From NCBI GenBank assembly GCA_964597575.1, contig CAZQXB010000001.1:466111-530110 (forward strand): a stretch of 64,000 nt of DNA, in the 5' to 3' direction. Shown one piece after another: positions 2,871 through 53,050 of this stretch. The stretch's first letter is position 1. Each line of letters begins with the position of its first letter. Both the position numbers and the translations under genes were made by a program. The notes under the pieces are model-generated. The model had not been told where the DNA came from, did not search any database, and saw only the letters and a program-made list of their open reading frames with translations. Origin of the DNA: an uncultured Gammaproteobacteria bacterium (GTDB lineage: Bacteria > Patescibacteriota > Patescibacteriia > Magasanikbacterales > UBA922).

Positions 2871-4364
2871 TTATACACCCTCGCCTTCTTTGTGTTTTTT
2901 CAGTAATCGACCAAGATCAAGGGTTTCTGTAATTTTTATTCCTTTCATGAATTCCTCCATATGCGACACAATAATCATTGCGCCTTCGTAGTTATTGAGG
3001 GCTTCCGCGATAATAGGAAGGTGGCGGAAGTTAATGTGGTTTGATGGTTCATCCAAAATAAGGAGTGCTGGTTTTTGCAATACAAATCGTGCAAACGACA
3101 ACAGTCCTTTTTGCCCTTCAGAAAGCGAAGCCACCGTATTTTTCATGATGGAAGAATGAAGAAGGAATGAAGAGGCCGTCGCGTAAATTTCTTCTTTATC
3201 CGGAATGTCCATCATTTCAGCCAAAGCATCGTATGGAGTTTTATCCATATCAAGCCCAGAAAAATCCTGGCGATAATATCCTACACGAATACCAGGGAGG
3301 ATAGTGGCTCCAGGTTCTGTATTTTTAGCGAGGCGCTCAAGAAGGGTGGTTTTACCAATTCCGTTTGGTCCTTTAATGACGAGTCGGTGTCCGCGACGAA
3401 GGGCAATATCAACCGGGACATGAATGGGTTCGTGAGCATCGATAATCGTTACCGATTCTAAGCGAACCACCACATCGGTCGTATGCTCGTAGGGGATTGC
3501 AAAACCTTTAATTGGTTTGTCATCTTTCCGAACATCGACTTTATTTTCTTCTTGTTCTTCAAGTTCATCTTTTAACTTGGCCGCAAGTTTGCGCATCTTT
3601 CCTCCTTTGTGTGCAAAAAAGTTTACCTTTTCTTTTTTATCTAAGATTTCTTTTTCCAGCTGAGCATTTTTTCGCTCCTCTCGTTCAATCTGCGCTTTAA
3701 TCTGCTCAACCACATCCATGTAGTTACCCGCGTACTGCTCTAATTTTTTCTTACGAGCATCAAGGTAGAGGACGCTGTCGGTAAACGAGTTTAAAAATTC
3801 TGCATCATGGGAAATCACGATCACGGTTTTATCGTAGAGGATAAGAAACATCGTGAGGTGTTCAATTCCCGTTTGATCTAAATTATTTGTCGGCTCGTCG
3901 AGCAAAAGGACATCAGGTTTTTGGATGAGGGCATACGCCAGAAGAAGTCGTGCTTGTTGCCCGCCAGAAAGCGCTCGGATTTTTCGGTCGAGAGGGACAT
4001 CTAAATTAACGGTTTCGAAAACATCAGCAATGAGCTTGTCGAGGTTATACTTTTTTTCAGTGAAGGCGGTCGCAAAATATTCCTGAACGGTATGGTCAAG
4101 ATATTGTTTCGGTACGACTTGGGGTGCGATAGCAATGGTCGCGCCGTCACGAACGTGTACCTTGCCGCCGAGGGGTTTAATTTCCCCGGTCATGAGTTTA
4201 AACATGGTGGTTTTGCCAGCCCCGTTTTGCCCCATGATCGTGACTTTTGTGCCCTCGCGTACTGATCCATTGGCCTCTTCCAGTTGCAATTTTTCCTCAT
4301 CGTAGCCAAAAGAAGTGTTTTCAAACCGAACAATAACGTTATTAGAACTCATAAGAAGAAACAA
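2871..4364 (-). CDS. ABC-F family ATPase (two ABC cassettes, no transmembrane domain)
   Basis: Two Walker A motifs (GQNGAGKT, GPNGIGKT), two LSGGQ signatures and a charged linker; 497 aa. Confidence 0.85.
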   Translation of the reverse strand: MFLLMSSNNVIVRFENTSFGYDEEKLQLEEANGSVREGTKVTIMGQNGAGKTTMFKLMTGEIKPLGGKVHVRDGATIAIAPQVVPKQYLDHTVQEYFATAFTEKKYNLDKLIADVFETVNLDVPLDRKIRALSGGQQARLLLAYALIQKPDVLLLDEPTNNLDQTGIEHLTMFLILYDKTVIVISHDAEFLNSFTDSVLYLDARKKKLEQYAGNYMDVVEQIKAQIEREERKNAQLEKEILDKKEKVNFFAHKGGKMRKLAAKLKDELEEQEENKVDVRKDDKPIKGFAIPYEHTTDVVVRLESVTIIDAHEPIHVPVDIALRRGHRLVIKGPNGIGKTTLLERLAKNTEPGATILPGIRVGYYRQDFSGLDMDKTPYDALAEMMDIPDKEEIYATASSFLLHSSIMKNTVASLSEGQKGLLSFARFVLQKPALLILDEPSNHINFRHLPIIAEALNNYEGAMIIVSHMEEFMKGIKITETLDLGRLLKKHKEGEGV

Positions 4365-4373
4365 TTTTGCCTA

Positions 4374-4402
4374 AGTATAGCAGAGAAAATTTGGTGTGTC
4401 AA
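4374..4402 (-). promoter_or_regulatory. sigma70-type promoter TTGACA-N17-TATACT for the ABC-F gene
   Basis: Minus-strand TTGACAcaccaaattttctctgcTATACT, 10-30 nt upstream of the ATG at 4364. Confidence 0.55.
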
Positions 4403-4449
4403 TCTTGTGGCTCTATTCGATTGAGGTTTGTAATTTTTAGCCTAAAATG

Positions 4450-4594
4450 TGTAAGTTAAAGTGAAAAATAGCTACATTATTATAGAAAAAATGAAAGGTT
4501 GGATTACAAAAAATGGCTTAAATAAGCCATTTTTATGTTCAAATATTTTCATTTTCTCTTTATTTTTGTATACATTTTTTACTTTAACTTACAG
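4450..4594. mobile_element. 144-bp MITE-like palindromic element, copy 1 (orientation A)
   Basis: 13-bp TIR tgtaagttaaagt / actttaacttaca; internal hairpin aaaatggcttaaataagccatttt. Full reverse-complement copies at 5322-5466 and 7586-7730. Confidence 0.8.
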
Positions 4595-4715
4595 CATCGG
4601 ATGGACGGCAGATTCTTCAGATCGACATTGCTCTGCTCGACCCCCACATTGTTGTCTGAACTGAGACGCTGGACGCCAGTGAACGAATGCTGGCATCGCC
4701 AGCTGGAGTTAACAA

Positions 4716-4913
4716 CTAGAACTCGTAACTACATACAATCTCGTTGTCCGGGATCGAGCAATCACGCGTACTGCAACAATCCTCATATGACTCCTGTGGC
4801 GCATCAGACACTCTTGTCTTGGGGTTCGACACCACATGGATCGCCAACACAATCAAGCCAACGACAACAAATATACCGACGATAGCCGCCCTACGCGCAA
4901 TTTGCATACACAA
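4716..4913 (-). CDS. small hypothetical membrane protein (65 aa)
   Basis: N-terminal TM helix (AAIVGIFVVVGLIVLAIHVV) and a Cys-rich tail; sits in a GC-rich segment between MITE copies 1 and 2. Weak support. Confidence 0.25.
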   Translation of the reverse strand: MCMQIARRAAIVGIFVVVGLIVLAIHVVSNPKTRVSDAPQESYEDCCSTRDCSIPDNEIVCSYEF

Positions 4914-5321
4914 ACAATTTTGTGAGTATTATCAACAGTATATCACAAGTACAGCGAGGTGTATCTTGAGACCCTTTATGTCGATTATCAATGTTGCCCT
5001 TCTTGCGGGCCTCGCGTGCTCGGCACGCCATCCAGATCGCGAACACTCGGGACCTCATGCACGGAGCAGCGGCCGAGCGATAATCGCTGGCCTTCCTGCG
5101 CCGGATACGTTCGAGTCCGTCGCATATCTGCAGAGAATACCAACCACCGCCAACGGAGGCGAGTCAGGATCCTGCTCCGCTGTATTGATATCTCCCGACA
5201 CTCTACTAACATCTCGACACTGTGGTTGCACAAGAAGCACCACGGCAGCATCTCGTACTTGCGATTCCACTATCTGCACGCACTTCATGATTAACGGAGA
5301 ATTGCAGTCATGCAGAGTAGG

Positions 5322-5466
5322 TGTAAGTTAAAGTAAAAAATGTATACAAAAATAAAGAGAAAATGAAAATATTTGAACATAAAAATGGCTTATTTAAGCC
5401 ATTTTTTGTAATCTAACCTTTCATTTTTCCTATAATAATGTAGCTATTTTTCACTTTAACTTACAG
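5322..5466. mobile_element. 144-bp MITE-like element, copy 2 (orientation B, reverse complement of copy 1)
   Basis: Near-identical over its full length to the reverse complement of 4450-4594. Confidence 0.8.
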
Positions 5467-5553
5467 TATCCCCATCAGTTCGAGTGAGGACGACGTATCG
5501 AAATGTTTCCCGCTTGGAATCAAGAGGGAAGCCGAGGTCGACGTCAAGCGGCG

Positions 5554-5955
5554 TCATAGCTGTGGAGGCTGGTTTGGGAAAACTTCGACATCTACTATGT
5601 CTACGAAGCGAATGTTGGGAACGATGGAGGGATCTGATGAAACCTCTCTAAAGTCTGAATGAAGTGGGCCATCTTCTCCCCAAAAGCGGTACCAAGCCCG
5701 TGGAGCACCTGACACGGTGGCCATCCACTGGCCGTGTTCGCTGGTGAAGTGTAGTTTAGCTCCGGGGATGTGTACCAGGATGAGGTCCGGGGGAAGAGCG
5801 TCACCGTACGCTCCCATACCATCGGGTAGTTCCAGCGGCACAACGTGGGATACTTCGGGTACATTCTCCTCGTAACTCGATCGAACGAATCCAATGAGGC
5901 CCGACTGAGCACGGGTCCACGCGTCTTCGTCGTCCTTCGTCGTCCTTCGACTCAT
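5554..5955 (-). CDS. hypothetical protein (133 aa) translationally coupled to the upstream ORF
   Basis: ATG at 5955 overlaps the TGA stop of ORF 5952..6728 in an ATGA junction. N-terminus is encoded by the tandem repeat (cgaaggacga)x2 (RRTTKDDED). GC-rich. Confidence 0.4.
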   Translation of the reverse strand: MSRRTTKDDEDAWTRAQSGLIGFVRSSYEENVPEVSHVVPLELPDGMGAYGDALPPDLILVHIPGAKLHFTSEHGQWMATVSGAPRAWYRFWGEDGPLHSDFREVSSDPSIVPNIRFVDIVDVEVFPNQPPQL

Positions 5956-6728
5956 GGTCCTACCTCTGTCGGAATGGCTCCCAGCAAGTAGAATACAACC
6001 AGATCGGTCGAGTCTACGTTCAAGGAGGAGATGGAGGTCCACTGGACATACTTGGGCTCAATCGACGCCGCATGTGTATGAATTGCACGGTATCGCGCTT
6101 CTGTCGCGCCCTCAGACAGCGACACAGTTGCGAACGAATCAGTGTCGAAAGCGTCTGCATCAAGCCTCAGCATCGGGACAGTAAGAACGCTTGTGGACCT
6201 TGAGTTGACGGTGGTGTTCGAGACAACGACGCGAACGATGCCCGGGCCGTCAACGTCCAGCACAATAACGTCGCCGCGTGCGATGCCGTGATTGTTTGGA
6301 GGCAAGCGCCGAACGAGACTGTCCAGTCGAGAGGGTAGCTGCGCGGAAAGCAACGTTTGGCGACGACTAGTTAGTTCCCACCATAGTTCGTTGTTGGTGT
6401 GCGCGTATTCCTTGATATACTGACCTATCGACAATCTGTATATTCGCGCGCATTCGACAACCGCCGGTAGTTCCCCTGGCGAAGTCGGAGATGCATACAC
6501 GCAGAGTGGCCAAATTCGATCCACTATTCGGCGATCCATTGTTCCTATTCGACGCGTTTTCGTAGTACGCATGTTCGCTAGATTTGTTCGCGAGGCTGCG
6601 TCTGTCTCCGTAAGGGTAATGAATCGTTTGTAGTTGGAATGGTCGGGGGTGGAAGGAAATGTGACTGATGCGCCGTAGACGATGCCAGGTCTGATGTTCG
6701 TCATGTTCTTCCGGAAATAGAATACCAC
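5952..6728 (-). CDS. hypothetical protein (up to 258 aa)
   Basis: Long open frame in the GC-rich island with no recognisable family. Its stop overlaps the downstream start (ATGA). Confidence 0.4.
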   Translation of the reverse strand: MVFYFRKNMTNIRPGIVYGASVTFPSTPDHSNYKRFITLTETDAASRTNLANMRTTKTRRIGTMDRRIVDRIWPLCVYASPTSPGELPAVVECARIYRLSIGQYIKEYAHTNNELWWELTSRRQTLLSAQLPSRLDSLVRRLPPNNHGIARGDVIVLDVDGPGIVRVVVSNTTVNSRSTSVLTVPMLRLDADAFDTDSFATVSLSEGATEARYRAIHTHAASIEPKYVQWTSISSLNVDSTDLVVFYLLGAIPTEVGP

Positions 6729-6775
6729 CTCTCGTTCAGAAAGGTGGTGATGTTGCGGGGTTCGGGAAGTGTACT

Positions 6776-6958
6776 CTAGCCGTTCGGAGATTCTTCCTCC
6801 TCCAGTGCCTTGGCGAGTTCCTCCTCCGAGAGTTCAGGGATGCTCACGCCGCGTTGGAATGCCTCGACCAGAAGACGTCGAGCGCCCTTTGTCAGTCGTT
6901 CTTCCTGCGACTTCGTCAGGCCCGTCTTGGGATCGCGTTCTTCTTTGCCGTCGCTCAT
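6776..6958 (-). CDS. small acidic hypothetical protein (60 aa; MSDGKEERD...EEEESPNG)
   Basis: Internal Met of ORF 6776..7324. A consensus promoter TTGACA-N17-TATAGT lies on the minus strand at 7080-7108. The longer upstream extension is Arg/Pro-rich, typical of a spurious GC-rich frame. Confidence 0.35.
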   Translation of the reverse strand: MSDGKEERDPKTGLTKSQEERLTKGARRLLVEAFQRGVSIPELSEEELAKALEEEESPNG

Positions 6959-7079
6959 GAGTCCTCCAGGACCCAGGTCGCGCGACAACCTTGTGGAGTC
7001 CCGCAACCTGATTCGGTTGCGTAGGGCTCCAGTCTTCGTGCTGGACCGGTTGGCGGACCGAAGTCCGTTCCAACAGAAT

Positions 7080-7108
7080 ACTATACAATAGTTCAGTCCG
7101 GCTGTCAA
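7080..7108 (-). promoter_or_regulatory. sigma70-type promoter TTGACA-N17-TATAGT
   Basis: Minus-strand TTGACAgccggactgaactattgTATAGT, about 110 nt upstream of the small ORF at 6958. Confidence 0.4.
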
Positions 7109-7585
7109 CTCGGGGGTGTGGACAACTTTAACTGTTGACGAGCGGCCGGTGATGATCGATCCTGACCAACTGGCTTCAACTCCCTGCCGACGGCAGTGCG
7201 CTGGCCGGTGATGTCGTCGGTTCGACACGCCCGCAACTTCTTTCGCGCCCTTCGGCGGTTGTACTGTCGCGTCAAACGATGTGGCGGTCAATCGGCACTG
7301 ATAGGGATCGCCCTTCAGGGCCAAGGGTGCCCTACGGCGGCGGATCTTCGTCCCCGGTGGTCGTTATTTGTCGCTGTGCTCGACGCATCGGACGGGTCCA
7401 CCGTTGGCACCCGCCGCTGCGACGAACTGAAGCACCGGCTTGCGGGCGAGGTCGTTGAATCAGCAGGTGAGCTTCGCGTCGTTGCCCTTCGGACGGGTGG
7501 ACGCAACGGTTCGCCGGTCCTCCTCGCAGACTCGACGTTTCGAGCGACGCGAAGCGGGTTCGCTACTCACGGTGCGGTCGAGGCG

Positions 7586-7730
7586 TGTAAGTTAAAGTAA
7601 AAAATGTATACAAAAATAAAGAGAAAATGAAAATATTTGAACATAAAAATGGCTTATTTAAGCCATTTTTTGTAATCCAACCTTTCATTTTTTCTATAAT
7701 AATGTAGCTATTTTTCACTTTAACTTACAG
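7586..7730. mobile_element. 144-bp MITE-like element, copy 3 (orientation B)
   Basis: Identical in length and almost identical in sequence to copy 2. Confidence 0.8.
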
Positions 7731-8246
7731 TCATTTCCGGGTGGACGAGTTCCGTACGTACATGGCGATCTGAATCCACGTAACATCATGCTCACCCGTG
7801 AAAACGGCGTATGGGGCCCCGTCGTCATAGACTTTTGCCGCCTTACGCCTCGCGCAATCGTGTCAGCAGACTTTGCCCGACTTGAGGCCGGTATTGTTGT
7901 GAAGTGCCTTCGCGCATTCCTTGACACCGCGGGGCAGGACCCGCAACGTCATGAAGAATTCATGATGTTCGAGAACTTGCTAAATGGCGCCATGCCGATA
8001 CCGGCCGCGGTTGACAACATCTCCGTAAATCTACGAAAAATTGTAACCGTCGTTGGCGCTATTCGGCGTACGTTTCTTCGTATCGCTGGCCTGCCTCCGC
8101 AGGACGATAGTAGGTTTTACTTTGCCACGTTGATGCTCTCGTATCTCGGCTACTTGCGTCCACATCAGATAGCACGTTTCTCAGCCGCGCAACGAAATGC
8201 AGCTCTGTACTTGAGCGCCAACATCTGGAGAAAGCACCTAAAATAG
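7731..8246 (+). pseudogene. C-terminal fragment of a kinase-fold phosphotransferase (APH/CotS/Kdo-kinase-like), truncated at MITE copy 3
   Basis: Frame beginning exactly at the element boundary encodes SFPGGRVPYVHGDLNPRNIML...VVIDFCRL, i.e. a kinase catalytic loop and DFG-like motif. No N-lobe upstream, and an in-frame stop lies inside the MITE. Confidence 0.45.
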
Positions 8247-8323
8247 CTGCCGTCCCCTTGCCTTGACTTGCCTACCTGGACGATGGTACAGTGGTGCCAT
8301 TGGTGGGGTGACCAAGATTCTCT

Positions 8324-8989
8324 ATGCATTTCAATGAACGCTCATGGTCGCCTCGTGCGTCTCGTCGCACGATTGGTGCTTACAATCGTATCGCCCATCG
8401 TTACGCAAACTTGTGGTTTGACGATCCGATCATGGAGCCGTCTCTTTGTCAGTTCCTGGACAACATACATCAGGCAGGCCCTGTGTTGGATGTTGGATGC
8501 GGACCTGGTCGAGATGTCGGGTTTATGCAGTCCCGTGGTTACATCGCCGTCGGAATCGACGCATCCACGAAAATGGTGGCCGAAGCCAGGCGTCGCGTGA
8601 GTTCCGCTAGGTTTGAGCACATGGACATGCGCAAACTACGATTTCCAGATTCCACCTTCGCTGGAGTTTGGGCTTGTGCATCAATTCTGCACCTCGACAG
8701 CAATGATCTGAATATAGCCTTTAGCGAATTCTATCGAATACTGAAGCCTGATGGCGTAGTTTTTGTGGTAGTCAAACATGGCGTTGGCGCCATGGTCGAC
8801 GACAATGGACGGTATTTTCGACTATTCACTCCTCCGGAGATTGAGCTTCTTTTGGATGCTTCCGGTTTTAGTGTGCTTACTTGGAGCATTGAAAAAGGTC
8901 GGCCAAGACCTGGGATCGAGCAGACGTGGATTCATGCCATAGGCGTGAAAGGCTCGATCCAAAACTCATGTAGTCTTCTCTCAAGATGA
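8324..8989 (+). CDS. class I SAM-dependent methyltransferase
   Basis: Motif I VLDVGCGPGRD, a post-I acidic residue, and LKPDGVVFVVV; 221 aa. Confidence 0.8.
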   Translation: MHFNERSWSPRASRRTIGAYNRIAHRYANLWFDDPIMEPSLCQFLDNIHQAGPVLDVGCGPGRDVGFMQSRGYIAVGIDASTKMVAEARRRVSSARFEHMDMRKLRFPDSTFAGVWACASILHLDSNDLNIAFSEFYRILKPDGVVFVVVKHGVGAMVDDNGRYFRLFTPPEIELLLDASGFSVLTWSIEKGRPRPGIEQTWIHAIGVKGSIQNSCSLLSR

Positions 8990-9064
8990 ACAGAAGAGAG
9001 GCGCACGTCGTGCGCCTCATGATGGCAAAAATTCTTTGCGGCAAGTCTCACACAATACTCTGGT

Positions 9065-9112
9065 TGTAAGTTAAAGTGAAAAATAGCTACATTATTATAG
9101 GAAAAATGAAAG
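9065..9112. mobile_element. partial (about 48 bp) copy 4 of the MITE-like element, orientation A 5' end only
   Basis: tgtaagttaaagtgaaaaatagctacattattatagGaaaaatgaaag, then diverges. Confidence 0.65.
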
Positions 9113-9384
9113 TTTTTTCTTGCCAATTTATTTTTTTAATCTTTCCGGGTCCATTCCCTTGTAGCCTTCTACCAGAAAAATAGTTTATTAGGTGCATAAA
9201 TATTATTTTTTTGATCCAAGTTTTTTTTCCTTTTTTGAACCCGGTGTCCTTGTATATCTAGGGTATTTTTCTTGGATTCCTGTCAATAAAGCACTGTGTT
9301 GGCCAAGTAGATTTCGTCTTTGACTGAAGGTCTTTAGGGTGGTATAGTCATTTAGTACCCCTCATACGAGGGCGTTTTCCTGTT

Positions 9385-11994
9385 TTGCCTGTTTTTCTCT
9401 TTATGCAAGATAAAATTATTATTCGTGGTGCGCGTGAGCATAACCTCAAAAACATCTCACTTGAAATGCCGCGCAACAAGATGATTGTTTTTACGGGGCT
9501 TTCTGGTTCAGGAAAGTCGAGTTTAGCGTTCGATACTATTTTTGCCGAAGGCCAACGCCGCTACATTGAAAGTCTGTCTTCCTACGCTCGCCAATTTTTG
9601 GGTGGCATGCAAAAACCCGATGTTGATGAAATTGAAGGGTTGTCTCCGGCTATTTCGATTGATCAGAAGGCGCATAGTTCAAACCCACGTTCAACGGTTG
9701 CAACCATTACGGAAATTTACGATTATCTTCGTGTTCTTTTTGCCCGCGTCGGTCAGCCGTACTGCCCTATGTGTGGTACCAAAATTGAGCGCATGGCTAC
9801 CGATCAAATGGTAGAAAATACCATTCGGAATGCGAAAAAATATGTTGTTTCGAATAAAGCCGAAGAAATTATTCTTTTTTCTCCGGTCGTACGTGGTCGA
9901 AAAGGGGAGTATTATCAAATGCTCTACGACTTATATAATTCAGGGTTTTTAGAAGTGCGCGTGGACGGAAAAATAAAAAGTTTGCGGACGCGTATTGTGT
10001 TATCGAAAAATAATCAGCATACGATTGAAGTGGTTGTCGATAAGCTTCCGGCGACGATGTTTAAAGCGGAAACGCTTAGTGAGGCTGATCGTCAGCGCGT
10101 CGCTGAAGCGATTGAACGTGCGGTGGATTTGTCGAACGGACTTTGTACGGTGAGGTACGGAGAAGGAAATGAAGCAACGTATAGTACCGAGTATAGTTGC
10201 CCGAATGACGGTTTTAGTTTTCCAGAAATTGAACCCCGGTTATTTAGTTTCAATAGTCCATATGGGCAGTGCAGTCGCTGTACTGGTTTAGGTACGGCAG
10301 AATTATTCAGTGAAGAAGTGTGCCCGAAATGTTTAGGCAAGCGCCTCAATGATAACGCTCTCTCGGTTAAGATTTTAGAAAAAAATATCCATGAGGTTAC
10401 GACCATGGATATTGCCGCAGCGAGAGCGTTCATTGTGCTTCTTGAGCAAGAAATGAATGCGCAGGATTTGGAAATTTCAGGGGCGGTTTTTCGCGAAGTG
10501 ACGAGTCGTCTGCAATTCATGCTCGATGTGGGTCTCGATTATTTGAGTTTAGATCGAAAAGCCGGAACGCTCTCGGGTGGTGAAGCCCAGCGTATTCGTT
10601 TAGCATCACAAGTAGGTACCCGCCTAGTTGGGGCACTTTATGTACTCGATGAACCAACGATTGGGCTGCATCAGCGCGATAATGAGCAGCTTGTTACCAC
10701 CCTCCGTAATTTATGTGATGTTGGAAATACGATTATTGTGGTTGAGCATGATGAAGATACGATTCTAACCAGTGATTGGATCGTGGATATTGGTCCGGGT
10801 GCCGGGAAGCATGGGGGAGACGTAGTCTATTCAGGACCTATGAGTAAATTGCTTAGCCCTGGAACCAAAAAGATGGAAACATTTGGATGTGAAGTTATTG
10901 GTGATGAGAAGAAATCGTTGACCGGAAAATATTTACGCGGAGAAGTTGCGATTGAAGTACCAGAAAAGCGCCGAAAAGTAGATGAATCCACTCCGAAATT
11001 AAAAATCAAAGGTGCTCGAGCCCATAACCTCAAAAACATTTCAGTTGAAGTTCCACTTCGACGGTTTGTGTCGCTGACCGGTGTATCTGGTTCTGGAAAA
11101 TCAACGGTGATGCACGATATTATTTATCGGACCGTTGCGAATAAGTTGAATCACGTGAATAAGAAAACAGGGGAATACGATACCATGATCGGTACCGAAT
11201 ACATTGATAAGGTCATTGTTATTGATCAGTCCCCGATTGGCCGTACCCCGCGTTCAAACCCAGCGACGTACACCAAAGCGTATGATACTATTCGTGAAAT
11301 CTTTGCGCTTACGACCGAAGCCCGTGTACGTGGGTATAAACCCGGTCGATTTAGTTTTAATACGCCAGGAGGTCGTTGTGAACACTGTGAAGGTCGAGGG
11401 CTCCTTGAAATCGAGATGCACTTCTTGCCGAGTGTTCAAATTGTGTGCGATGTGTGTAAGGGGAAACGGTTTGATCAGGAAACATTGCAGGTTCACTATA
11501 ATGGAAAGAGCATCTTTGATGTGTTAAACATGACGATTGAAGATGGAAGTGAGTTTTTCGCAGACATTCCAGGTATTTCGGATAAGCTTAAAGTGTTAAA
11601 AGAAGTCGGTTTGGGGTACCTCACACTCGGGCAATCGGCCACTACCCTCTCAGGGGGTGAGGCGCAGCGTATTAAGCTCTCGCGTGAATTGGCGAAACGG
11701 AACACGACAAAAACATTGTATTTGCTCGATGAGCCAACCACGGGTTTGCATTATGATGATGTCAAAAAATTGATTGAGGTTCTCCAGAAACTCGTTTCAC
11801 AAGGAAATACTGTCATGGTGATTGAGCACAATCTCGACCTGATTAAATGTGTGGACTGGATTATTGATATGGGTCCAGAGGGTGGGTCAAAGGGTGGGGA
11901 AGTTGTAACGACCGGAACTCCAGAGCAGGTGTCAAAGACAGGAAAAAGCTCAACCGGGCAGTATTTGCGACGTATGTTGGCAGAGAAAAAGTAA
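9385..11994 (+). CDS. uvrA: excinuclease ABC subunit A
   Basis: 869 aa with two ABC ATPase modules ([18 protein letters not shown]), two LSGGE signatures and zinc-finger CxxC pairs. N-terminus [28 protein letters not shown]. Confidence 0.95.
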
Positions 11995-29945: not shown

Positions 29946-30992
29946 ATGTTTTCTAAGTTGTTCGTTGCTCTTTTTACGATTCTCCTTGTTTCGCTGTCGG
30001 CTTGCGCGTTTCGACCAGATTCGCTCATAGCCGAGGAGCCGACGTTGGTCGATGCACAGATCGGTCTCGACACCATCACTGTCGACGGCAACTCGGAAGA
30101 CGCTCAGTCATTCGAAGACGCCGCGGCGCTCGATGGAGGTGCTCACCCTGATACCGGGGGTGGCGATGTCGGCTTTTCAGATGCACAACCGCGTGATGCG
30201 GTAGTGCCTGACGCGAATGCCCCGGACGCAACCGTCCCAACCGACCCGAGTTTCGGGTACGAACGGGTGGTGGCGGGTACGGCGATGCTCGCGAACCCGC
30301 GTCGCTCGGTGACTTTCACCCGTGATCTGTGGGTCAAGCGCACCGAGGTCACTCGGTACGAATGGTGCGTCATCATGGGTCCCGAGGCACCAGATGACTG
30401 CCCCGCAGACGATCGTCCGATCGCAGACGTTCCTCTCGCGCAGATGCTTCTGTATCTCGACCGTCTTTCCGATCGGTTCGGACTCCCGCGATGCTACAAC
30501 GGGTTTTTGAATTATAACCCCACGTGCACCGGGTTCCGACTCCCGTCGGAGCTCGAGTGGGAGTTTGCCGCTCGCGGAACTGAGCAAGACGAGTTCGCAG
30601 GGGCAGTCTGCCAACCAAGCATGAACAACCTGAACCAGTGTGTTCAGGACGTCTGCCTCGAGCCGGTGGCATGGTACTGCCCGAATCGTGTAGCAGGTCC
30701 GCAACCCGTATCCCAGGGACCGACCGCTTCTGGGCCAGTAGCCAACTCAAACGGCCTCGTTCACGTTCATGGAAACGTGTACGAGACGACGCAGGGCTGC
30801 GACGGGCCGCTTGCCACGGGTCCGGTCACTGACCCGCTACCTCCATCATGGCCGTGTGTAGGCAACCGAGTACTTCGTGGCGGTAGCTACGAGGCAATCG
30901 GTAACGAACTCGGGCTTTCGGTCCGGTTCAATGTCTCATTCGGTCACCAGTCATTGTCCGCTGGCTTCCGCCCGGTGCGAAGCGCCAGCTAA
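29946..30992 (+). CDS. FGE-sulfatase (SUMF1) domain lipoprotein
   Basis: Lipobox LSAC; RLPSELEWEFAARG and LRGGSYEA motifs of the formylglycine-generating-enzyme family. About 60% GC against the roughly 45% backbone. Confidence 0.7.
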   Translation: MFSKLFVALFTILLVSLSACAFRPDSLIAEEPTLVDAQIGLDTITVDGNSEDAQSFEDAAALDGGAHPDTGGGDVGFSDAQPRDAVVPDANAPDATVPTDPSFGYERVVAGTAMLANPRRSVTFTRDLWVKRTEVTRYEWCVIMGPEAPDDCPADDRPIADVPLAQMLLYLDRLSDRFGLPRCYNGFLNYNPTCTGFRLPSELEWEFAARGTEQDEFAGAVCQPSMNNLNQCVQDVCLEPVAWYCPNRVAGPQPVSQGPTASGPVANSNGLVHVHGNVYETTQGCDGPLATGPVTDPLPPSWPCVGNRVLRGGSYEAIGNELGLSVRFNVSFGHQSLSAGFRPVRSAS

Positions 30993-46096: not shown

Positions 46097-46130
46097 AAAA
46101 ACACCGACGCTTGAAACGTCGGTGTTTTTA
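46097..46130 (+). terminator. rho-independent terminator after rpoD
   Basis: aaacaccgacg-cttgaaa-cgtcggtgttt followed by tttat. Confidence 0.7.
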
Positions 46131-46243
46131 TCTTCCCAAGACATTGTCCAAGTGTTGAACAAGATAATAGGGAAGGGAAGTGGTGGCTAGTACAGTCGAA
46201 TCTCTCCGCTTCCCATTTTGCCGAGAGCCTCCAGGTCTCGGGC

Positions 46244-46729
46244 TTACCGTTTGATCTTCGCCTTGAAGGCGAGGCCGATGTCCATGCAGCTGTGTCCGTG
46301 CAGAACGATCGGGTTCTTGTCCATCCTGCTCATGAGGAGCTGCACCGGCATCCGCTCGCTGTAGAGCTCGCCCTCCTCGTCGAGGAGGAACAGCGTGATC
46401 AGAGCCGCCGGATCGGCTGCGATGAGGACCCAGCGGTTGGTGGGCGTGACGTCGGTCATGAGGAAGTCCGCACCTCCTTCCAGCTGGAAGAAGAAGCACC
46501 CTTCCCCCTTTTCGATCCTGACCTGCGGGACTGCCGCGTCCCCGGGGATGGGAGAAGCCTGTGCTTCGAGGTAGAAGCAGTTCGGACACCCAGTCTTCTC
46601 CTTGAACTCCCGGTGCCAGCGGTTGGTGGCCTCGAGGTTGTCCGGCTCCGGCGGACGCGCCGGGAACGAGGAACACCCGACGATCATGATGGTGATGAGC
46701 AGCGAAAGGGCAGTCTTGGTAATGTTCAC
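46244..46729 (-). CDS. GC-rich lipoprotein (LP1), paralog of 47632..48114
   Basis: Lipobox IVGC; shares GEGC and GH[ST]C motifs with LP2. Probable GTG start. Minus-strand promoter TTGACA-N17-TATACT at 46830-46858. Confidence 0.6.
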   Translation of the reverse strand: MNITKTALSLLITIMIVGCSSFPARPPEPDNLEATNRWHREFKEKTGCPNCFYLEAQASPIPGDAAVPQVRIEKGEGCFFFQLEGGADFLMTDVTPTNRWVLIAADPAALITLFLLDEEGELYSERMPVQLLMSRMDKNPIVLHGHSCMDIGLAFKAKIKR

Positions 46730-46829
46730 GTTCGTATCCTTTTCCGGATAAATCCGGGATTTTTTGGTGATCGACTACAAAGTAGTCGAGTTCCTTTGTA
46801 GGAAGCCTGGTTTAGCTTCGGAACCACAC

Positions 46830-46858
46830 AGTATAGCATAAAACAGGCATTTTGTCAA
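46830..46858 (-). promoter_or_regulatory. sigma70-type promoter TTGACA-N17-TATACT for LP1
   Basis: Minus-strand gTTGACAAAAtgcctgttttatgcTATACT; two palindromes (ccggataaatccgg; tcgactacaaagtagtcga) lie in the 5' UTR at 46756-46790. Confidence 0.5.
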
Positions 46859-46975
46859 CCTGTAAAATGTATCCCTCTTCTTGACCAATTACGGTTTTTC
46901 CCGTATATCTTCCTATGACCGTTTGCACCTAGAAATGGCAGAGAGGCCTGTTCAGCACAGGAGAAGGGGGAGGGA

Positions 46976-47443
46976 ATGTCAGAAAAACGATGGTATCGAA
47001 ACGCTCGGTTGTCGAAAGAAAAGAAGGCGGCTTTGAAGGAGAAAATGACGACTGGCGAAATCATCGGGAAGCTCAAGGCAATGCATTTCTTCGGCGATAT
47101 CTGTATAGCCGAGGAAACCATTCTCGATACGATGGCAGTGTGCATCACGGATGACACCATAGAAAACCGCCCTCGTATTCGCCAGATCGTGTTCATCGAC
47201 ATGGATTACTTCCTCGTATTCCTTGCTCTCGATGCTGTCACGGCCGAGAGCATTCGCGAAGCGACCTTCGATCCTGAAGGGGGAACGCTGACCTTTCGCA
47301 ATTTCATGTTCCTGTTCCCGGGAGAAATTGAGAAAAGGCCAGTTGATGTGGTGTTTCGAAGCACCGATGGGCCGGAGCTCGACCACTACGCGTTCTACAC
47401 TGCCGACGAACACGGCCAACCACTCGGGGATCCTCCCTCGTGA
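46976..47443 (+). CDS. hypothetical protein (155 aa)
   Basis: RBS-like ggaggg 8 nt upstream; no recognisable family. Confidence 0.45.
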   Translation: MSEKRWYRNARLSKEKKAALKEKMTTGEIIGKLKAMHFFGDICIAEETILDTMAVCITDDTIENRPRIRQIVFIDMDYFLVFLALDAVTAESIREATFDPEGGTLTFRNFMFLFPGEIEKRPVDVVFRSTDGPELDHYAFYTADEHGQPLGDPPS

Positions 47444-47486
47444 TACTGCTGCTCGCGGCCCTCACCAGAACCCCACTGTTCTGGTC

Positions 47487-47526
47487 CAATCAAAAAATCA
47501 CCAGCGAATGGTGATTTTTTGTATGC
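47487..47526. repeat. about 40-bp repeat containing the perfect palindrome aaaaaatcacca-gcgaa-tggtgatttttt, copy a
   Basis: Identical 39-mer ccaatcaaaaaatcaccagcgaatggtgattttttgtat recurs at 48350-48390. Confidence 0.7.
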
Positions 47527-47631
47527 TATTCCTGGGAACAAGGTCTACAGAAGTAAACCGTGTAGTTAGGAAGGGAAGGAGGAAACGCTCGGTGCGGTTC
47601 GCTCAGCTTCCCGATGATGGGACTCTGTGGA

Positions 47632-48114
47632 TCAATCCTTGAAGAACTTTTGATAGATGGCTTCGTCGATTTGGTCACAGGTGTGGCCGTTGACGGAGAG
47701 CCTGTCATCGGTCTTCAGGATACTCTCCCAGAGGTATCTCTGGCCCGTGGTGGTCGGATTCCCGAAGTCATCGACTCCGATGATAACGGTGCCGAAGTCA
47801 CTCTCCGGCACCGGAAGGGAAACCCACGGTTTCTCCTCCGTGATCTCGACGACGTAGGTCGGGCTGGGGCCTGGGTTCTTGTGCGCGTTCTCGGGCGTCC
47901 TCCAAATCCAGAGGAACGCGCACCCCTCGCCCTCAAACTTGACACTGTTTCCGTGCGCGGGCTTCTCGGCGAACGTTTCGAGCTTCGTGTACCGGTGGTA
48001 CTCCCTGTCCTTTGCCGTCATGAACCCCCAGTCTTTGGTGAGTGGCGCCGTGGCACACCCGGTGCTGACGAGCAGGAGAACGATCAGGGTGGTGAGAATT
48101 CGTCCGTTGTTCAT
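47632..48114 (-). CDS. GC-rich lipoprotein (LP2), paralog of LP1
   Basis: Start MNNGRILTTLIVLLLVSTGC at 48114; FEGEGCAF and GHTCDQI motifs shared with LP1. Confidence 0.6.
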   Translation of the reverse strand: MNNGRILTTLIVLLLVSTGCATAPLTKDWGFMTAKDREYHRYTKLETFAEKPAHGNSVKFEGEGCAFLWIWRTPENAHKNPGPSPTYVVEITEEKPWVSLPVPESDFGTVIIGVDDFGNPTTTGQRYLWESILKTDDRLSVNGHTCDQIDEAIYQKFFKD

Positions 48115-48349
48115 GTTGACTCCGATCTTTTGGTTGTGTTGTTTCTGGTTGAGATTGAGATTTTTTCTGCTCCCGGTGTTACCCGTACTTCCGAGTACGG
48201 GGAACAGTTGGGGCAAGGAAAGAATCTTCAAAAGAGAGTCAATTTTGAACAACATAGTATAACACAAAAAAGCCCCTCTGTCAAGAGGTGTCTACAAGTA
48301 AATTAAGGCTTTATTTGCTATAAAAATCACTATTTTTTACTCGTATTTC

Positions 48350-48390
48350 CCAATCAAAAAATCACCAGCGAATGGTGATTTTTTGTATTC
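48350..48390. repeat. copy b of the 40-bp palindrome-containing repeat
   Basis: Lies immediately upstream of promoter module P2, between the divergent LP2 and helicase genes. Confidence 0.7.
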
Positions 48391-48411
48391 TATTTCCTCA
48401 ATTATTCTACC

Positions 48412-48617: not shown

Positions 48618-50471
48618 ATGACTGAGACAAAGGATGTCTTACCGGTACAAGAATATCGGGACGAAGTTCTGACGTCTGTTCAGAACAATGCGATTACCTT
48701 GATCATTGCCGAAACTGGGGCAGGAAAAAGCACGCAAGTGCCAAAATTCCTCCTTGAAGCTGGCTACAGGGTGGTCGTGACGCAACCCAGACGTTTGGCT
48801 GCGATAAGCTTGGCCACTCGTGTGGCTGAGGAACTAGGGTGCGAAATCGGCACTACTGTAGGCTACCGAACGGGGCATGAGCGCGCATCCTCAAAGGACA
48901 CGCGGTTACTGTTCTGTACGGACGGGCTGCAGTTGGTCCGGGAGCTTACGGGTAACGGTATTGGCGACGACGCAGAAACGGTTCTCGTGCTCGACGAAGT
49001 TCACGAGTGGAATCTCAATCTGGAAATTCTTCTCGGCTTCGTGAAGAAGCAGCAAGAAGAAGGCCAGAACTGCAAGGTTCTGCTCATGTCAGCCACTGTG
49101 GATGTGGAAAAACTGAACGCGTACTTCGGTAGCGTACAGGTTATCCGTATTCCCGGTCGGTTGTATCCGGTGACGTGGGCTTACCGCAGTGCGCGCTCCT
49201 TGTTCACCGAGGTGAGCAGGTTTGCTCGTGGGGGGAAGAATGTGTTGGTTTTTCAGCCGGGGATCAAGGAGGTGAACGACCTCCTGCGTTCGCTCGATGG
49301 ACTCGACGCAGAACTTCTCCCGCTTCATGGAAATCTTGAAGCGAGCGAGCAGACACGGTGCTTCGATCAGTACACCCGACCAAAGGTGATCGTTGCTACG
49401 AACGTCGCGCAGACGTCCGTGACGATTCCCGGGATCGACGCAGTCATAGATTGCGGTCTCGAGAAAAAGCCGCACGTGGTTAATGGTGTCGAAGGGTTGT
49501 ACCCTCGTCCGATTAGCCAAGCCGACTGCCAGCAACGAGCAGGTCGTGCGGGACGCTGTGGTCCGGGAGAGTATGTTCTCTGCGCCGACACTCCCTTCAA
49601 GGATAGAGAGGTATTTCCTTTGCCGGAAATCGCGTATCTCCAACTTGATCAGGTGGTGCTTCGGCTCGCAGCGTTCGGACTCGACGCCTGCTCCTTTCCT
49701 TTCTTCCACGAACCGAATCAGGAGAACCTGGCGCGGTCGAAGGAATGTTTGGAAGGTATGGGCGCCCTAACCGAGGCAGGTGTTGTGACAGAGGTTGGAA
49801 AGCTTATGGCCAAACTTCCTCTCACTGCACGGTACGCACGGATGGTCGTGGAAGCCATGAAACGTAGAGTCGTGGCAGACGTGGTGAAGGTGGTTGCCAT
49901 TCTCGAAGCCGGCGGTCTCCGAGACAAGAATCGAGAGTGGCAGTACTACACGCGTGAAGAGGGAAGTGATCTTCTGGCGGATCTTGAACTGTATGAAGCA
50001 GTCCGAGGGTTGCGCCCGAAAGACATGGAAAAGAGAGGTATCAGTCCCGGAAGATATTACGAGGCCAAGAAGATTGTGGGGGACATTATGCAAGTCCTTC
50101 GCTCTCATCGAGTCTTCGGAGTTTCTCCGGGTTCTCGTCGCGATATCCTCCTTGCCTGTGCTGCCGGTATGGCGGATCAGGTCCATCGACACGTGGGTGG
50201 TGGTTGGTACGAAAACAAGAAAGGAGAGAAAAGAAAAAAGTCGTCACAAAGTGCGGTTACTGGTGAGCCCGAACATGTTGTGGGTTTGCCTCGAGATCTG
50301 CTTCTTGGACAACACGTGAAGCACGTGCTTGAGTACGTTTCCGCCCTGAACGCTGAGCAGATTGCCGAGGTGATGTCGGTAACCCCTCAGCAGACATACT
50401 CCCGGCACGCAGAGCTCGAAGTTGTCCGAGTGCAGCGTGCGGTGGTATCAAAGGAGGCAAAAAAACACTGA
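48618..50471 (+). CDS. DEAH-box (HrpA/HrpB-like) ATP-dependent helicase
   Basis: GAGKST Walker A, DEVHE box, TQPRR, SAT, QRAGRAGR motifs and a helicase-associated C-terminus; 617 aa at about 55% GC. Confidence 0.85.
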   Translation: MTETKDVLPVQEYRDEVLTSVQNNAITLIIAETGAGKSTQVPKFLLEAGYRVVVTQPRRLAAISLATRVAEELGCEIGTTVGYRTGHERASSKDTRLLFCTDGLQLVRELTGNGIGDDAETVLVLDEVHEWNLNLEILLGFVKKQQEEGQNCKVLLMSATVDVEKLNAYFGSVQVIRIPGRLYPVTWAYRSARSLFTEVSRFARGGKNVLVFQPGIKEVNDLLRSLDGLDAELLPLHGNLEASEQTRCFDQYTRPKVIVATNVAQTSVTIPGIDAVIDCGLEKKPHVVNGVEGLYPRPISQADCQQRAGRAGRCGPGEYVLCADTPFKDREVFPLPEIAYLQLDQVVLRLAAFGLDACSFPFFHEPNQENLARSKECLEGMGALTEAGVVTEVGKLMAKLPLTARYARMVVEAMKRRVVADVVKVVAILEAGGLRDKNREWQYYTREEGSDLLADLELYEAVRGLRPKDMEKRGISPGRYYEAKKIVGDIMQVLRSHRVFGVSPGSRRDILLACAAGMADQVHRHVGGGWYENKKGEKRKKSSQSAVTGEPEHVVGLPRDLLLGQHVKHVLEYVSALNAEQIAEVMSVTPQQTYSRHAELEVVRVQRAVVSKEAKKH

Positions 50472-52828: not shown

Positions 52829-53050
52829 ATTCTAAATAAAAAGTTGAGGAAGATCGGGGAGTGTGATAGGCTTTTAGGGAAGGTGGTGAGTGTAATTTTT
52901 TTGTGTATGCCCTTCGGTGAAGGTTTCAAATTCAATTTTTTTAAACGAAAAGACGAAGGGGAATTACGAGCCCAGGTCGAATCAGCCGAGGAACGTTTAG
53001 ATGTTTCGCCGAAAGAAAAGATTGTACCCCCTAAGCATCAGGAGGATTTA

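Follow-up and report, generated by a model that had tools for sequence, protein, structure and literature searches.

Within a window of 64 kb (the whole stretch of DNA analysed), taken from a single 913,817-bp contig of a Patescibacteria genome of ~45% GC, a 144-bp palindromic repeat occurs three times in full and once in part, and it is through its copies that three GC-rich segments of foreign DNA are joined in a hypervariable intergenic hotspot. The sequence-only reading that described the repeat missed this arrangement and took the copies for MITE-like elements; that they form a palindromic, non-coding family with terminal inverted repeats (TIRs) is correct, but no full copy acts as a simple MITE insertion. 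The arrangement suggests a mosaic, transposon-like island of gene acquisition with the repeat at its joints, more than it does a MITE that simply jumps.

The full copies, each 144 bp long, are E1 (4450-4593, minus strand), E2 (5322-5465, plus strand) and E3 (7586-7729, plus strand), located where the earlier reading had put them except that its ends ran one base too far. Read on the plus strand, E1 runs A arm, hairpin, B arm, and E2 has the order B arm, hairpin, A arm; the inverse orientation reported for the second and third copies is borne out, the reverse complement of E1 matching E3 at 144/144 positions and E2 at 99%. The partial copy, E4, does begin at 9065 but covers 51 nt (9065-9115, minus strand) rather than 48; it consists of a tip and about 48-51 nt, A arm only, at 96-98% identity. 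There is no further copy within the 64-kb window, and by a rough estimate of our own, four copies in 4.7 kb of 64 kb would arise by chance with a probability of about 4 × (4.7/64)^3 = 0.002.

Each element is built of two similar but distinct arms of ~57 nt (A and B, about 80% alike) around a central hairpin. The 13-bp TIR TGTAAGTTAAAGT is perfect, as had been claimed, and occurs seven times, at both ends of the three full copies and in the partial one, against 0.05 expected from shuffles; the central hairpin AAAATGGCTTAAATAAGCCATTTT, likewise as described, is confined to the three full copies (4510-4533 in E1, with the same motif at 5382-5405 in E2 and 7646-7669 in E3), where the chance expectation is 0. 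In E1 its 11-bp stem is bordered by an A-tract on one side and a T-tract on the other, a layout like that of bidirectional terminators in the host (cf. the hairpin at 47491-47521 in host DNA), and between lineages the motif shows one compensatory G-C to A-T change, which is not significant. The whole 144-bp unit folds into one long hairpin as DNA (-31.7 kcal/mol, z = -8.0) and, in the folding check that had been proposed, as RNA (-41.5 and -47.3 kcal/mol, z = -8.8 and -9.5). It is also non-coding, as had been thought: one frame is open throughout and gives 46 codons, for which a word-based search found no protein with shared words among 5.8 billion predicted proteins. Its GC content is 21% (20.8% in E1), versus 52-57% in the segments and ~45% in the host genome. 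Around the copies there is no target-site duplication (TSD) of at least 2 bp, in agreement with the earlier description; when all pairings of the seven flanks were compared, no match reached 3 nt, and the only complementary 2-nt pairs (flanks d and g, f and g) are at chance level. The single base bordering each full copy is the same on both sides in 4/4 cases (G..G three times, C..C once).

Segment A (4594-5321; 728 bp, 51.8% GC) lies between E1, whose left tip adjoins host DNA and whose right tip adjoins the segment, and E2. It carries a small membrane-protein ORF (4716-4913, minus strand) and, at 4978-5321 on the plus strand, the start of a putative trypsin-like protease gene, 114 codons that comprise a signal peptide and a His-box region and end at the left tip of E2 (5321); this 5′ fragment matches Pfam Trypsin weakly, over profile positions 24-49 of 220 with an E of 0.005, and falls below the cut-off. 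Segment B (5466-7585; 2120 bp, 56.9% GC) contains three minus-strand ORFs with no family match (6776-6958, 60 aa; 5952-6728, 258 aa; 5554-5958, 134 aa), upstream of which lies a promoter-like site on the same strand (7080-7108; TTGACA-17-TATAGT, 11/12). Segment C (7730-9064; 1335 bp, 51.9% GC), which falls within an exact match of Logan contig L001 to window positions 7702-9094, opens with the 3′ fragment of a TCAD9/APH-type kinase gene (7731-8246, plus strand), whose 171 codons start exactly at the right tip of E3, and continues with a complete class-I SAM methyltransferase gene (8324-8989, plus strand) that has its own promoter-like site (8263-8292). The tip of E4 faces segment C, and its inner end is fused to AT-rich host intergenic DNA.

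Of the kinase, a protein of ~770 aa when whole, the fragment covers positions 299-423 of the 429 in the Pfam TCAD9 profile and aligns only to residues ~590-765 of homologues that are about 740-777 aa long; tblastn with five full-length homologues found no trace of residues 1-589 in the 64-kb window. With E2 removed in silico, the protease-like frame meets a stop after 7 codons, and deletion of E2 or E3 restored no reading frame, also when frames were followed by hand. Since the 5′ part of the kinase is absent from the 64 kb and genes stop at the tips, the copies are not simple insertions into contiguous DNA; with the missing gene halves not found, deletion and recombination with distant copies would look the same.

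The array occupies a hypervariable interval (4404-9335) between the divergent promoters of ABC-F (4374-4402, minus strand) and uvrA (9320-9348, plus strand). In the sister genome L037, which is syntenic on both sides of the interval at 77-79% nucleotide identity, homology ends at 4403 and returns at 9336; the orthologous site lacks the element and holds three other genes, one with 58-60% GC, and L039/L040 have yet another small gene upstream of ABC-F. The search for copies elsewhere that had been suggested took the form of scans with exact patterns, over 185,579 species-representative genomes and JGI metagenomes, and matched the element only in contigs with flanks of ~43-45% GC. Related copies, at 88-93% identity, were found in three contigs only (L002, L019 and L022), all at non-orthologous sites; L022 is from the same clade as the host, so the set includes at least one contig from that clade. 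Being absent from the sister site and present at non-orthologous sites, the element has moved or been moved. No autonomous partner with the element's TIRs was present in any sequence scan made, and no pair of empty and filled sites differing by the element alone was found.

In L022 the element family flanks a 549-nt segment (55% GC), and in L002 and L019 a 1104-nt segment (55% GC) beside tRNA-Val, with a secreted-protein ORF cut at the element tip; the cargos at the three loci share the element family and no common sequence. Of 12 scored tips, 10 adjoin DNA of 52-57% GC that is unrelated to the 45% GC host, and the other two (left tip of E1, right copy of L002) lie exactly at host DNA. The L002 and L019 segments are identical at 1104/1104 positions, and their right-hand copies still agree over the first ~36 nt; past that point the inner arm, the hairpin and everything beyond differ. 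Between lineages the tips and the asymmetry of the A and B arms are conserved and the inner B arm is variable. Partial forms recur with similar internal ends: E4 and L022 have an A arm of ~50 nt, L019 and L022 a B arm with hairpin and T-run.

The explanation that we prefer, with a confidence that falls just short of even, is that of a lineage-specific, non-autonomous TIR element: the 144-bp unit would form the repeated boundary of translocatable units of foreign DNA, as in IS26 arrays and MITE-bounded composites. On our best reading it is native to this Patescibacteria clade, and in its 21% GC and its A-tract/stem/T-tract hairpin it resembles host intergenic DNA and terminators, not the cargo. 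The lack of TSDs, the presence of both orientations and the 99-100% identity within 4.7 kb are together the pattern of replicative or intramolecular transposition and of recombination between copies. The invariant 13-bp tips would be the sites of DNA breakage and joining, and the agent may be a transposase that acts in trans from another part of the genome or has since been lost; a search for a cognate transposase had been recommended, and the 64-kb window contains no transposase or recombinase, which counts against this explanation. Local multiplication of the element could come from replicative or intramolecular events at its tips, in the form of adjacent deletions and inversion-duplications, and from homologous recombination of one copy with another; these processes could also erase target duplications and leave truncated genes at the tips. 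Circles of one element and one segment would loop out and re-insert at a resident copy or at AT-rich microhomology, giving an element-segment-element array in a permissive intergenic hotspot, and the central hairpin would probably end transcription from both directions and so insulate the neighbours. The recurrent internal ends of the partial copies are not predicted by tip-directed transposition alone, and point to a second, internal joining site.

Such internal ends are what would be expected if the 144-bp unit were the recombination site of an attC- or dif-like cassette system, in which circles of one palindrome and one segment are inserted by a site-specific recombinase with a crossover near the hairpin and T-run, a "full element" being the rebuilt junction of neighbouring cassettes and half-sites being left at the ends of the array. 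The L022 segment has T-run, A arm and tip on its left and tip, B arm, hairpin and T-run on its right, with TATTTTTTA on both sides, such that its two flanks sum to one circularly permuted element; L019 likewise ends past the hairpin T-run, the right end of the array in the window (E4) is an A-arm-only half, every full copy preserves the linker from hairpin to A arm, and the tip heptamers GTTAAAG and CTTTAAC are each one position off the integron core heptamers GTTRRRY and RYYYAAC. However, the left end of the array is a full copy (E1) with its tip against host DNA, and segment A lies between two B arms and segment C between two A arms, where the cassette model predicts A/B. The heptamer order is also opposite to that of attC (GTTAAAG 5′, CTTTAAC 3′), the DNA beyond the tips has no conserved second half-site, the cargo is made up of gene fragments that have promoters of their own instead of whole promoterless ORFs, and no integrase or recombinase is encoded in the 64 kb. 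We regard a cassette system as unlikely.

A passive origin, with the element arriving from one or more GC-rich donors as pieces of MITE-peppered DNA integrated by illegitimate recombination, would account for the GC-rich DNA at 10 of 12 tips and for the internal breakpoints of the partial copies, which join host DNA as if fragment ends had fallen within AT-rich elements. It is harder to reconcile with an element of 21% GC in cargo of 52-57%, with one element family accompanying three unrelated cargos at three loci, with the two tips that join host DNA exactly, with a hairpin that follows the host terminator style, and with scan matches that all have ~43-45% GC flanks, and we give it little credence.

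Even less probable, in our judgement, is an assembly artefact, in which GC-rich inter-repeat contigs, or a 4.6-kb circle, were misthreaded into the chromosome via the shared repeat and only a lone A-arm remnant separates ABC-F from uvrA in the true chromosome. E1 and E4 do have 36 identical nt in common in direct orientation, so that a solo A arm plus a circle would give almost the same k-mers; Logan k=31 contigs break 30 nt into the element on each side, and independent confirmation of the junctions is confined to that between host and E1 tip (contig L043 of SRR13355620, an independent k-mer assembly), the uvrA side having none. Yet a read is much longer than the shared stretch, one long contig supplies the whole window, and the same architecture is seen in three other contigs of other assemblies, with half-elements of about 57 and 87 nt in L022 that have unique DNA on both sides; L002 and L019, for their part, both tie the identical segment to one and the same tRNA-Val region. 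Elsewhere in the host genome and in L037, moreover, GC-rich genes commonly occur with no element. Three independent cut-and-paste MITE insertions into a pre-existing contiguous foreign island, a reading with which the size, perfect TIRs, hairpin, lack of coding capacity and both orientations agree, are largely refuted here and highly improbable, given the lack of TSDs, flanks that are not contiguous across E2 or E3, 590 kinase codons missing upstream of E3, and island borders that coincide with element copies.

Among known repeats, the element is like Correia, RUP, ERIC, BOX, Rickettsia RPE (a palindromic repeat family of small genomes) and REP/BIME sequences in being about 100-150 bp, palindromic and non-coding, with possible terminator or promoter effects; the likeness to Correia, ERIC and RUP that had been proposed is one of form only, and we know of no sequence similarity to the Correia, RUP, ERIC, BOX, RPE or REP families. 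Those families have tens to hundreds of dispersed copies, most of them inserted simply, between genes or in frame, and many flanked by a TA-like TSD, whereas this element is clustered, TSD-less and confined to foreign-DNA joints. The pdif modules of Acinetobacter plasmids are bounded by XerC/D sites of 28 bp, in which a 6-bp spacer parts two Xer-binding arms; these too are short palindromic sites of alternating orientation that bracket discrete exchangeable gene modules, but the tip here is only loosely like a XerD arm and has no second arm beyond it. Integron attC sites are imperfect palindromes of 57-141 bp that are near-identical within one chromosome and fold into hairpins, and in attC/CALIN arrays, as here, palindromes part cassettes of foreign composition and the integrase may be absent nearby. 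Unlike in attC arrays, the heptamers of the element are reversed, the orientation is mixed, the cassettes hold gene fragments that come with promoters, IntI is not seen, and conservation extends 5 nt past the point where a crossover would fall.

Composites bounded by MITEs in direct or inverted orientation have been documented, and some composite-forming MITEs carry an internal recombination (res) site (PMC13367494; PMC10969869 for the latter also). In TIME-COMPs and MITE-flanked integrons, two non-autonomous miniature TIR copies bracket and mobilise genes, as we propose here, with a TSD around the whole unit and Tn3 as the parent family (PMC13367494; PMC10969869). The present array, in contrast, has no TSD, no parent, three stacked units and a truncated copy at one outer end.

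The differences from IS26 are equally plain: IS26 is an IS of ~820 bp with a DDE transposase and this element is a 144-bp non-coding palindrome, and the IS6-family TIR GGCACTGTTGCAAA is unrelated to that of the element. No transposase was found here, the replicon is a Patescibacteria chromosome, the cargo is not resistance genes, and the permuted half-elements of L022 are no feature of IS26. In IS26 arrays, replicative or intramolecular transposition, which results in deletion or inversion, and inter-copy recombination give both orientations, often without TSDs, and circles of one IS26/IS6-family element with adjacent DNA re-insert beside a resident copy (PMC7986276). The array described here is similarly made up of short-TIR copies, direct and inverted, that bound segments of different origin with genes truncated at their ends.

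The 144-bp palindromic element is present in three full copies, E1 (4450-4593), E2 (5322-5465) and E3 (7586-7729), and in one partial copy, E4 (9065-9115), all within 4.7 kb of the 64-kb window (of a 914-kb genome), and the window has no further copy. E1 and E3 are exact reverse complements over 144 of 144 positions, and E1 and E2 are 99% complementary; the sequence-only reading, which had described three full copies in both orientations, was right in this, with ends that were off by one base, and its partial copy does exist at 9065, although at 51 nt it is slightly longer than the 48 nt first given. The element is bounded by a TIR pair, TGTAAGTTAAAGT...ACTTTAACTTACA, which is perfect over 13 bp, and inverted similarity extends to 47 nt at 79-81%; two similar but distinct arms (the A arm and the B arm) surround a central hairpin. 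The TGTAAGTTAAAGT 13-mer, the invariant end or tip, occurs seven times in the window, each time at an element end (0.05 occurrences expected), and the central hairpin motif is confined to the three full copies, so that both features stand as originally described. The folding check that had been suggested turns the whole unit into one long hairpin, with z of -8 to -9.5 as DNA or RNA. The GC content of the element is 20.8%, and its single open frame of 46 codons shares words with none of 5.8 billion predicted proteins in a word-based search, in agreement with the earlier view that it has no coding capacity; as bait for additional copies, the encoded peptide gave no candidate. No tRNA or Rfam family overlaps the copies, Rfam gave no significant or credible match at gathering or permissive thresholds, and the family is without a match in the Rfam, plasmid or phage collections, as is the whole 4.7 kb when compared by BLAST with plasmids and phages. 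Literature searches found no description of such elements in Patescibacteria.

Between the copies lie three GC-rich segments, A (4594-5321; 51.8% GC), B (5466-7585; 56.9%) and C (7730-9064; 51.9%), in a flanking genome of 45-46% GC. Segment C opens at 7731, at the E3 tip, with the catalytic-loop region (HGDLNPRN) of a TCAD9/APH-type kinase; this fragment covers positions 299-423 of the 429 in the Pfam profile, its homologues of 740-777 aa match only via their last ~175 residues in an exhaustive HMMER search, and tblastn with five homologues found nothing of kinase residues 1-589 anywhere in the 64-kb window. Segment A ends at the E2 tip within the 5′ part (signal peptide and His-box) of a putative trypsin-like protease with a weak Pfam match. 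Removing E2 or E3 in silico restores no ORF, the E2 deletion running into a stop after 7 codons. Because genes are cut at the tips, the E2 deletion gives a stop and the 5′ part of the kinase is absent, the segments are separate fragments, each bounded by element tips. Segment C also encodes a complete SAM methyltransferase, and promoter-like sites are found in segment B (7080-7108, minus strand) and segment C (8263-8292, plus strand). The ORFs of segment B belong to no family in Pfam, PDB or PADLOC, and the 258-aa ORF among them had no tblastn match in plasmids. Undoing an E1-E3 inversion to rejoin the kinase was also tried and rejected, as the minus strand offers no open frame leading into 4594.

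The array lies between the gene for an ABC-F ATPase (2871-4364, minus strand; promoter 4374-4402) and uvrA-uvrC (from 9385; promoter 9320-9348), whose consensus promoters each face outward from the interval. The nearest named relatives of the ABC-F protein are Patescibacteria (Magasanikbacteria, Uhrbacteria), and NCBI places two proteins of the island on one contig of 913,817 bp; the host is therefore a small-genome CPR bacterium. A sister genome, L037, with an ABC-F that is 89% identical, aligns up to 4403 and again from 9336; its gap contains three quite different genes, one at 58-60% GC, and the whole interval differs, with no trace of the element. These genes (L037 6961-9950) are of the 3-dmu-9_3-mt family, guanylate-kinase-like and, at 58-60% GC, ADP-ribosylglycohydrolase. 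Two further relatives (L039 and L040) have yet another small gene upstream of ABC-F, and two more distant ABC-F relatives (L041 and L042) showed neither synteny nor the element. Since the sister genome and two further relatives hold other genes there, 4404-9335 is a hypervariable acquisition hotspot between two divergent promoters.

Other parts of the window deserve mention in their own right. GC-rich islands (55-61%) without the 144-bp element lie at 29946-30992, 46128-47450 and 48618-50471 in this 45% GC genome, and encode an FGE-sulfatase-domain secreted protein, small lipoprotein-like ORFs and a DEAH-helicase-like gene. A near-identical promoter family, TTGACAAAAGGTG...TGGTATACT, recurs upstream of several genes (9316, 29830, 40895, 48408 and 50625). 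A helicase-like protein of 1196 aa (52844-56434) carries in its C-terminal half at least nine tandem repeats of ~57 aa (171-nt period) with the motif YKNHPGWPS...W.GW.EFF, and a TraD/VirD4-like ATPase (704 aa, 59672-61786) has a long Pro/Ala/Gly-rich, GC-rich low-complexity tail at 61000-61786.

The copies do not behave as simple insertions. As the sequence-only reading had noted, no target-site duplication (TSD) is visible: there is no direct repeat of at least 2 bp around E1, E2, E3 or the copy in L002, one of the contigs with related copies. With pairings that covered normal insertion, replicative inversion and cointegrates of circular segments, the seven window flanks gave no match of at least 3 nt, direct or inverted, in any combination; flanks d-g and f-g have 2-nt complementary starts, which is the chance level. 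The segment ends show no circular contiguity. A single identical base does stand on both sides of all four full copies (E1, E2, E3 and that of L002). The 30 nt directly after E4 (9109-9138) are 70% similar to the B arm and could be the decayed rest of a once complete copy or an AT-rich chance similarity. Two other readings of the copies were rejected: a spliceosomal intron or "introner" (GTAAGT...CAG on the plus strand of all three window copies), as the DNA is bacterial, no frame is restored on splicing and the L002 and L019 copies have C or T next; and an outward promoter in the A arm, where a perfect TATAAT has no usable -35 and is absent from the promoter scan.

Copies at other loci, which had been proposed as a check, do exist. 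Exact-pattern scans of 185,579 species-representative genomes, JGI metagenomes and IMG/VR returned real copies in three contigs only (L002, L019 and L022), everything else being chance 20-mers, which also made up most of the matches to a single-tip pattern; the two-TIR gapped pattern had no match in the viral and metagenome collections. L022, which belongs to the same clade as L037 because the two are 77.6% identical in nucleotides over NUDIX-DUF218, carries in order a T-run, A arm and tip, a 549-nt segment of 55% GC, and a tip, B arm, hairpin and T-run, so that a single element, circularly permuted, encloses a foreign piece. L002, from a MAG labelled Gammaproteobacteria by its submitters, and L019 share an identical 1104-nt segment of 55% GC beside tRNA-Val, at the end of which an ORF is cut at the tip. 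Their right-hand copies have the first ~36 nt in common, after which the inner arm, the hairpin and all beyond differ, which places the start of the flank difference inside the element; in L002 a 58-nt A arm abuts the tRNA flank, and in L019 there follow 415 nt, 210 of them at 55% GC. The inner B arm varies between lineages; conservation covers the outer B arm, the A arm and the tips, and the two arms stay asymmetric. Two stretches directly beside partial elements (L019 1241-1450 and L022 7556-8015) are non-coding, at 50-55% GC; they look structured without matching Rfam, and may be additional foreign fragments or unrecognised RNAs. L022 has several other repeat features (1-847, 6798-9607 and 10394-10584). 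A cytidine-deaminase gene lies between 127-nt direct repeats (99%) that contain a hairpin, and two different small ORFs have around them duplicate copies of a 42-nt promoter and of a 38-nt motif. Part of uvrB, ~190 nt, is present a second time at a distance of 5.6 kb, and UvrB itself, at 1232 aa, apparently contains an intein.

The central hairpin has an 11-bp stem with three G-C pairs, preceded by an A5 tract and followed by a T5-6 tract, with energies of -13.1 and -12.9 kcal/mol on the two strands, and may act as a two-way terminator; a consensus scan did not list it. One compensated change (G-C to A-T) separates the lineages, which is not significant and too little for statistics. This hairpin design and the AT content of the element mirror the intergenic and terminator style of the host itself. 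A 45-nt terminator-like hairpin of the same layout (A-tract, stem, T-tract) occurs at 47486-47530 and 48350-48394 as direct copies that are 98% identical, bracketing a GC-rich lipoprotein-like gene (47632-48111, minus strand) with its own promoter (TTGACA-N17-TATACT), which makes 47486-48394 a second locus where hairpins of host style, in direct repeat, enclose a foreign gene.

A cognate transposase, for which a search had been suggested, was not found: the window contains none, and the scans of the genome, metagenome and viral collections, which used exact patterns blind to diverged inner ends, gave copies of the element or chance 20-mers and no autonomous IS whose TIRs match. Among the ORFs of at least 70 aa in the 64 kb, some of which were scanned against Pfam, none was recognised as integrase-like, and no IS200/RAYT-like ORF was seen in the window.

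We tentatively favour the possibility that the element is a native, non-autonomous TIR element that forms the repeated boundary of translocatable foreign-DNA units. This reading builds on the anatomy, the tip-exact truncations, the lack of a TSD, the hotspot, the copies at other loci and the flank differences within the element; from these we infer an enzyme and circles. Looping out between direct copies would release circles of one element and one segment. Arrays would grow as such circles re-inserted, either next to a copy already in place or where there is AT-rich microhomology, and the permuted form seen in L022 could arise in this way; E1 and E4 together could excise the entire 4.6-kb block.

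A site-specific cassette system with its crossover near the hairpin would account for the recurrent half-forms, but is a doubtful alternative. In attC sites R″ (RYYYAAC) is 5′ and R′ (GTTRRRY) is 3′, all sites having one orientation, and arrays without IntI (CALINs) exist; integron cassettes are mostly single, complete, promoterless ORFs. Reading the tips as attC fails, since GTTAAAG is 5′ and CTTTAAC 3′ on either strand, which is the reverse order, and the copies are of mixed orientation; a dif reading fails as there is no second arm beyond the tip. Also against a cassette system, the array has a full copy at its left end, no recombinase is among the ORFs recognised in the window, and the cargo is fragmentary: unlike cassettes, the element-bounded segments carry gene fragments and promoter-like sites of their own. 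It seems unlikely, too, that the element is the repeat of an undescribed DNA-capture array of Patescibacteria, in which circular or linear foreign pieces, possibly from the bacterial host, would be joined to the invariant palindrome tips and stacked at a permissive intergenic site by an unrecognised enzyme or by host repair acting on a cruciform. That the element was brought in by GC-rich donors is quite improbable given its composition, the tip-exact host junctions and the same element accompanying unrelated cargos.

An artefact of the assembly path is very unlikely. In a k=31 assembly of SRR13355620, one contig (L001) spans segment C and runs 29-30 nt into the element on either side, and a 34-kb contig (L043) ends with the junction of host and E1 tip; towards uvrA, the contig obtained begins within that gene. 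The identity between E1 and E4 covers no more than 36 nt, much less than a read. The same architecture is seen in other assemblies, where unique DNA flanks half-elements of 57-87 nt, and because of this recurrence and these flanks a chimera is unlikely. A plain MITE inserted three times is barely credible, as it is largely refuted by the missing kinase residues 1-589.

The genomes of Patescibacteria/CPR bacteria are generally regarded as streamlined, with little mobile DNA. Yet they plainly acquire foreign genes, since the window alone has several islands of 52-61% GC in a 45% GC genome, and here a small native palindrome marks every joint of a three-piece foreign mosaic and encloses further foreign pieces elsewhere. 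Should the element mediate the joints, gene flow into ultra-small symbionts could be approached through it in a concrete way, and IS26-like array building would be possible by a 144-bp non-coding module. If the cassette or the capture reading were true, this would be a new kind of gene-acquisition platform; a capture array would give ultra-small episymbionts a dedicated route to sample and store foreign genes, paralleling integrons in function with a different site logic and no IntI.

Among known systems, MITEs are non-coding elements of 50-500 bp with TIRs, a TSD, dispersed copies and an autonomous IS partner. The MITE-like label of the sequence-only reading holds for the 144-bp size, the lack of coding and the perfect TIRs, but not for the flanks, which show no TSD and are not contiguous on removal of a copy. 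The Correia, ERIC and RUP families each have a consensus and a characteristic TSD (TA for Correia), and no TA duplication flanks our copies. REP/BIME systems combine short GTAG-headed palindromes with a RAYT (Y1 HUH) gene; here the tip reads TGTAAG, and no RAYT-like ORF was seen in the window. At IS26 ends, genes are truncated. The copies here lie in both orientations, are 99-100% identical, cluster locally and lack TSDs, four features that are described for IS26 arrays, whose copies bound segments of different origin; there, intramolecular replicative transposition produces adjacent deletions and inversion-duplications while recombination between copies reshuffles the flanks (PMC7986276). Our copies likewise bound segments of different origin and truncated genes with no TSDs; they differ from IS6/IS26 in that the window contains no transposase ORF. 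Compared by eye, the TIR appears unrelated to the 14-bp TIR of the IS6 family. Composites bounded by direct or inverted MITE copies are also documented (PMC13367494; PMC10969869). The near-exclusive association with GC-rich DNA, the permuted half-forms and the same base on both sides of all four full copies are left unexplained. Overall, the architecture is a variant of IS26-like and MITE-composite arrays in an unexpected host.
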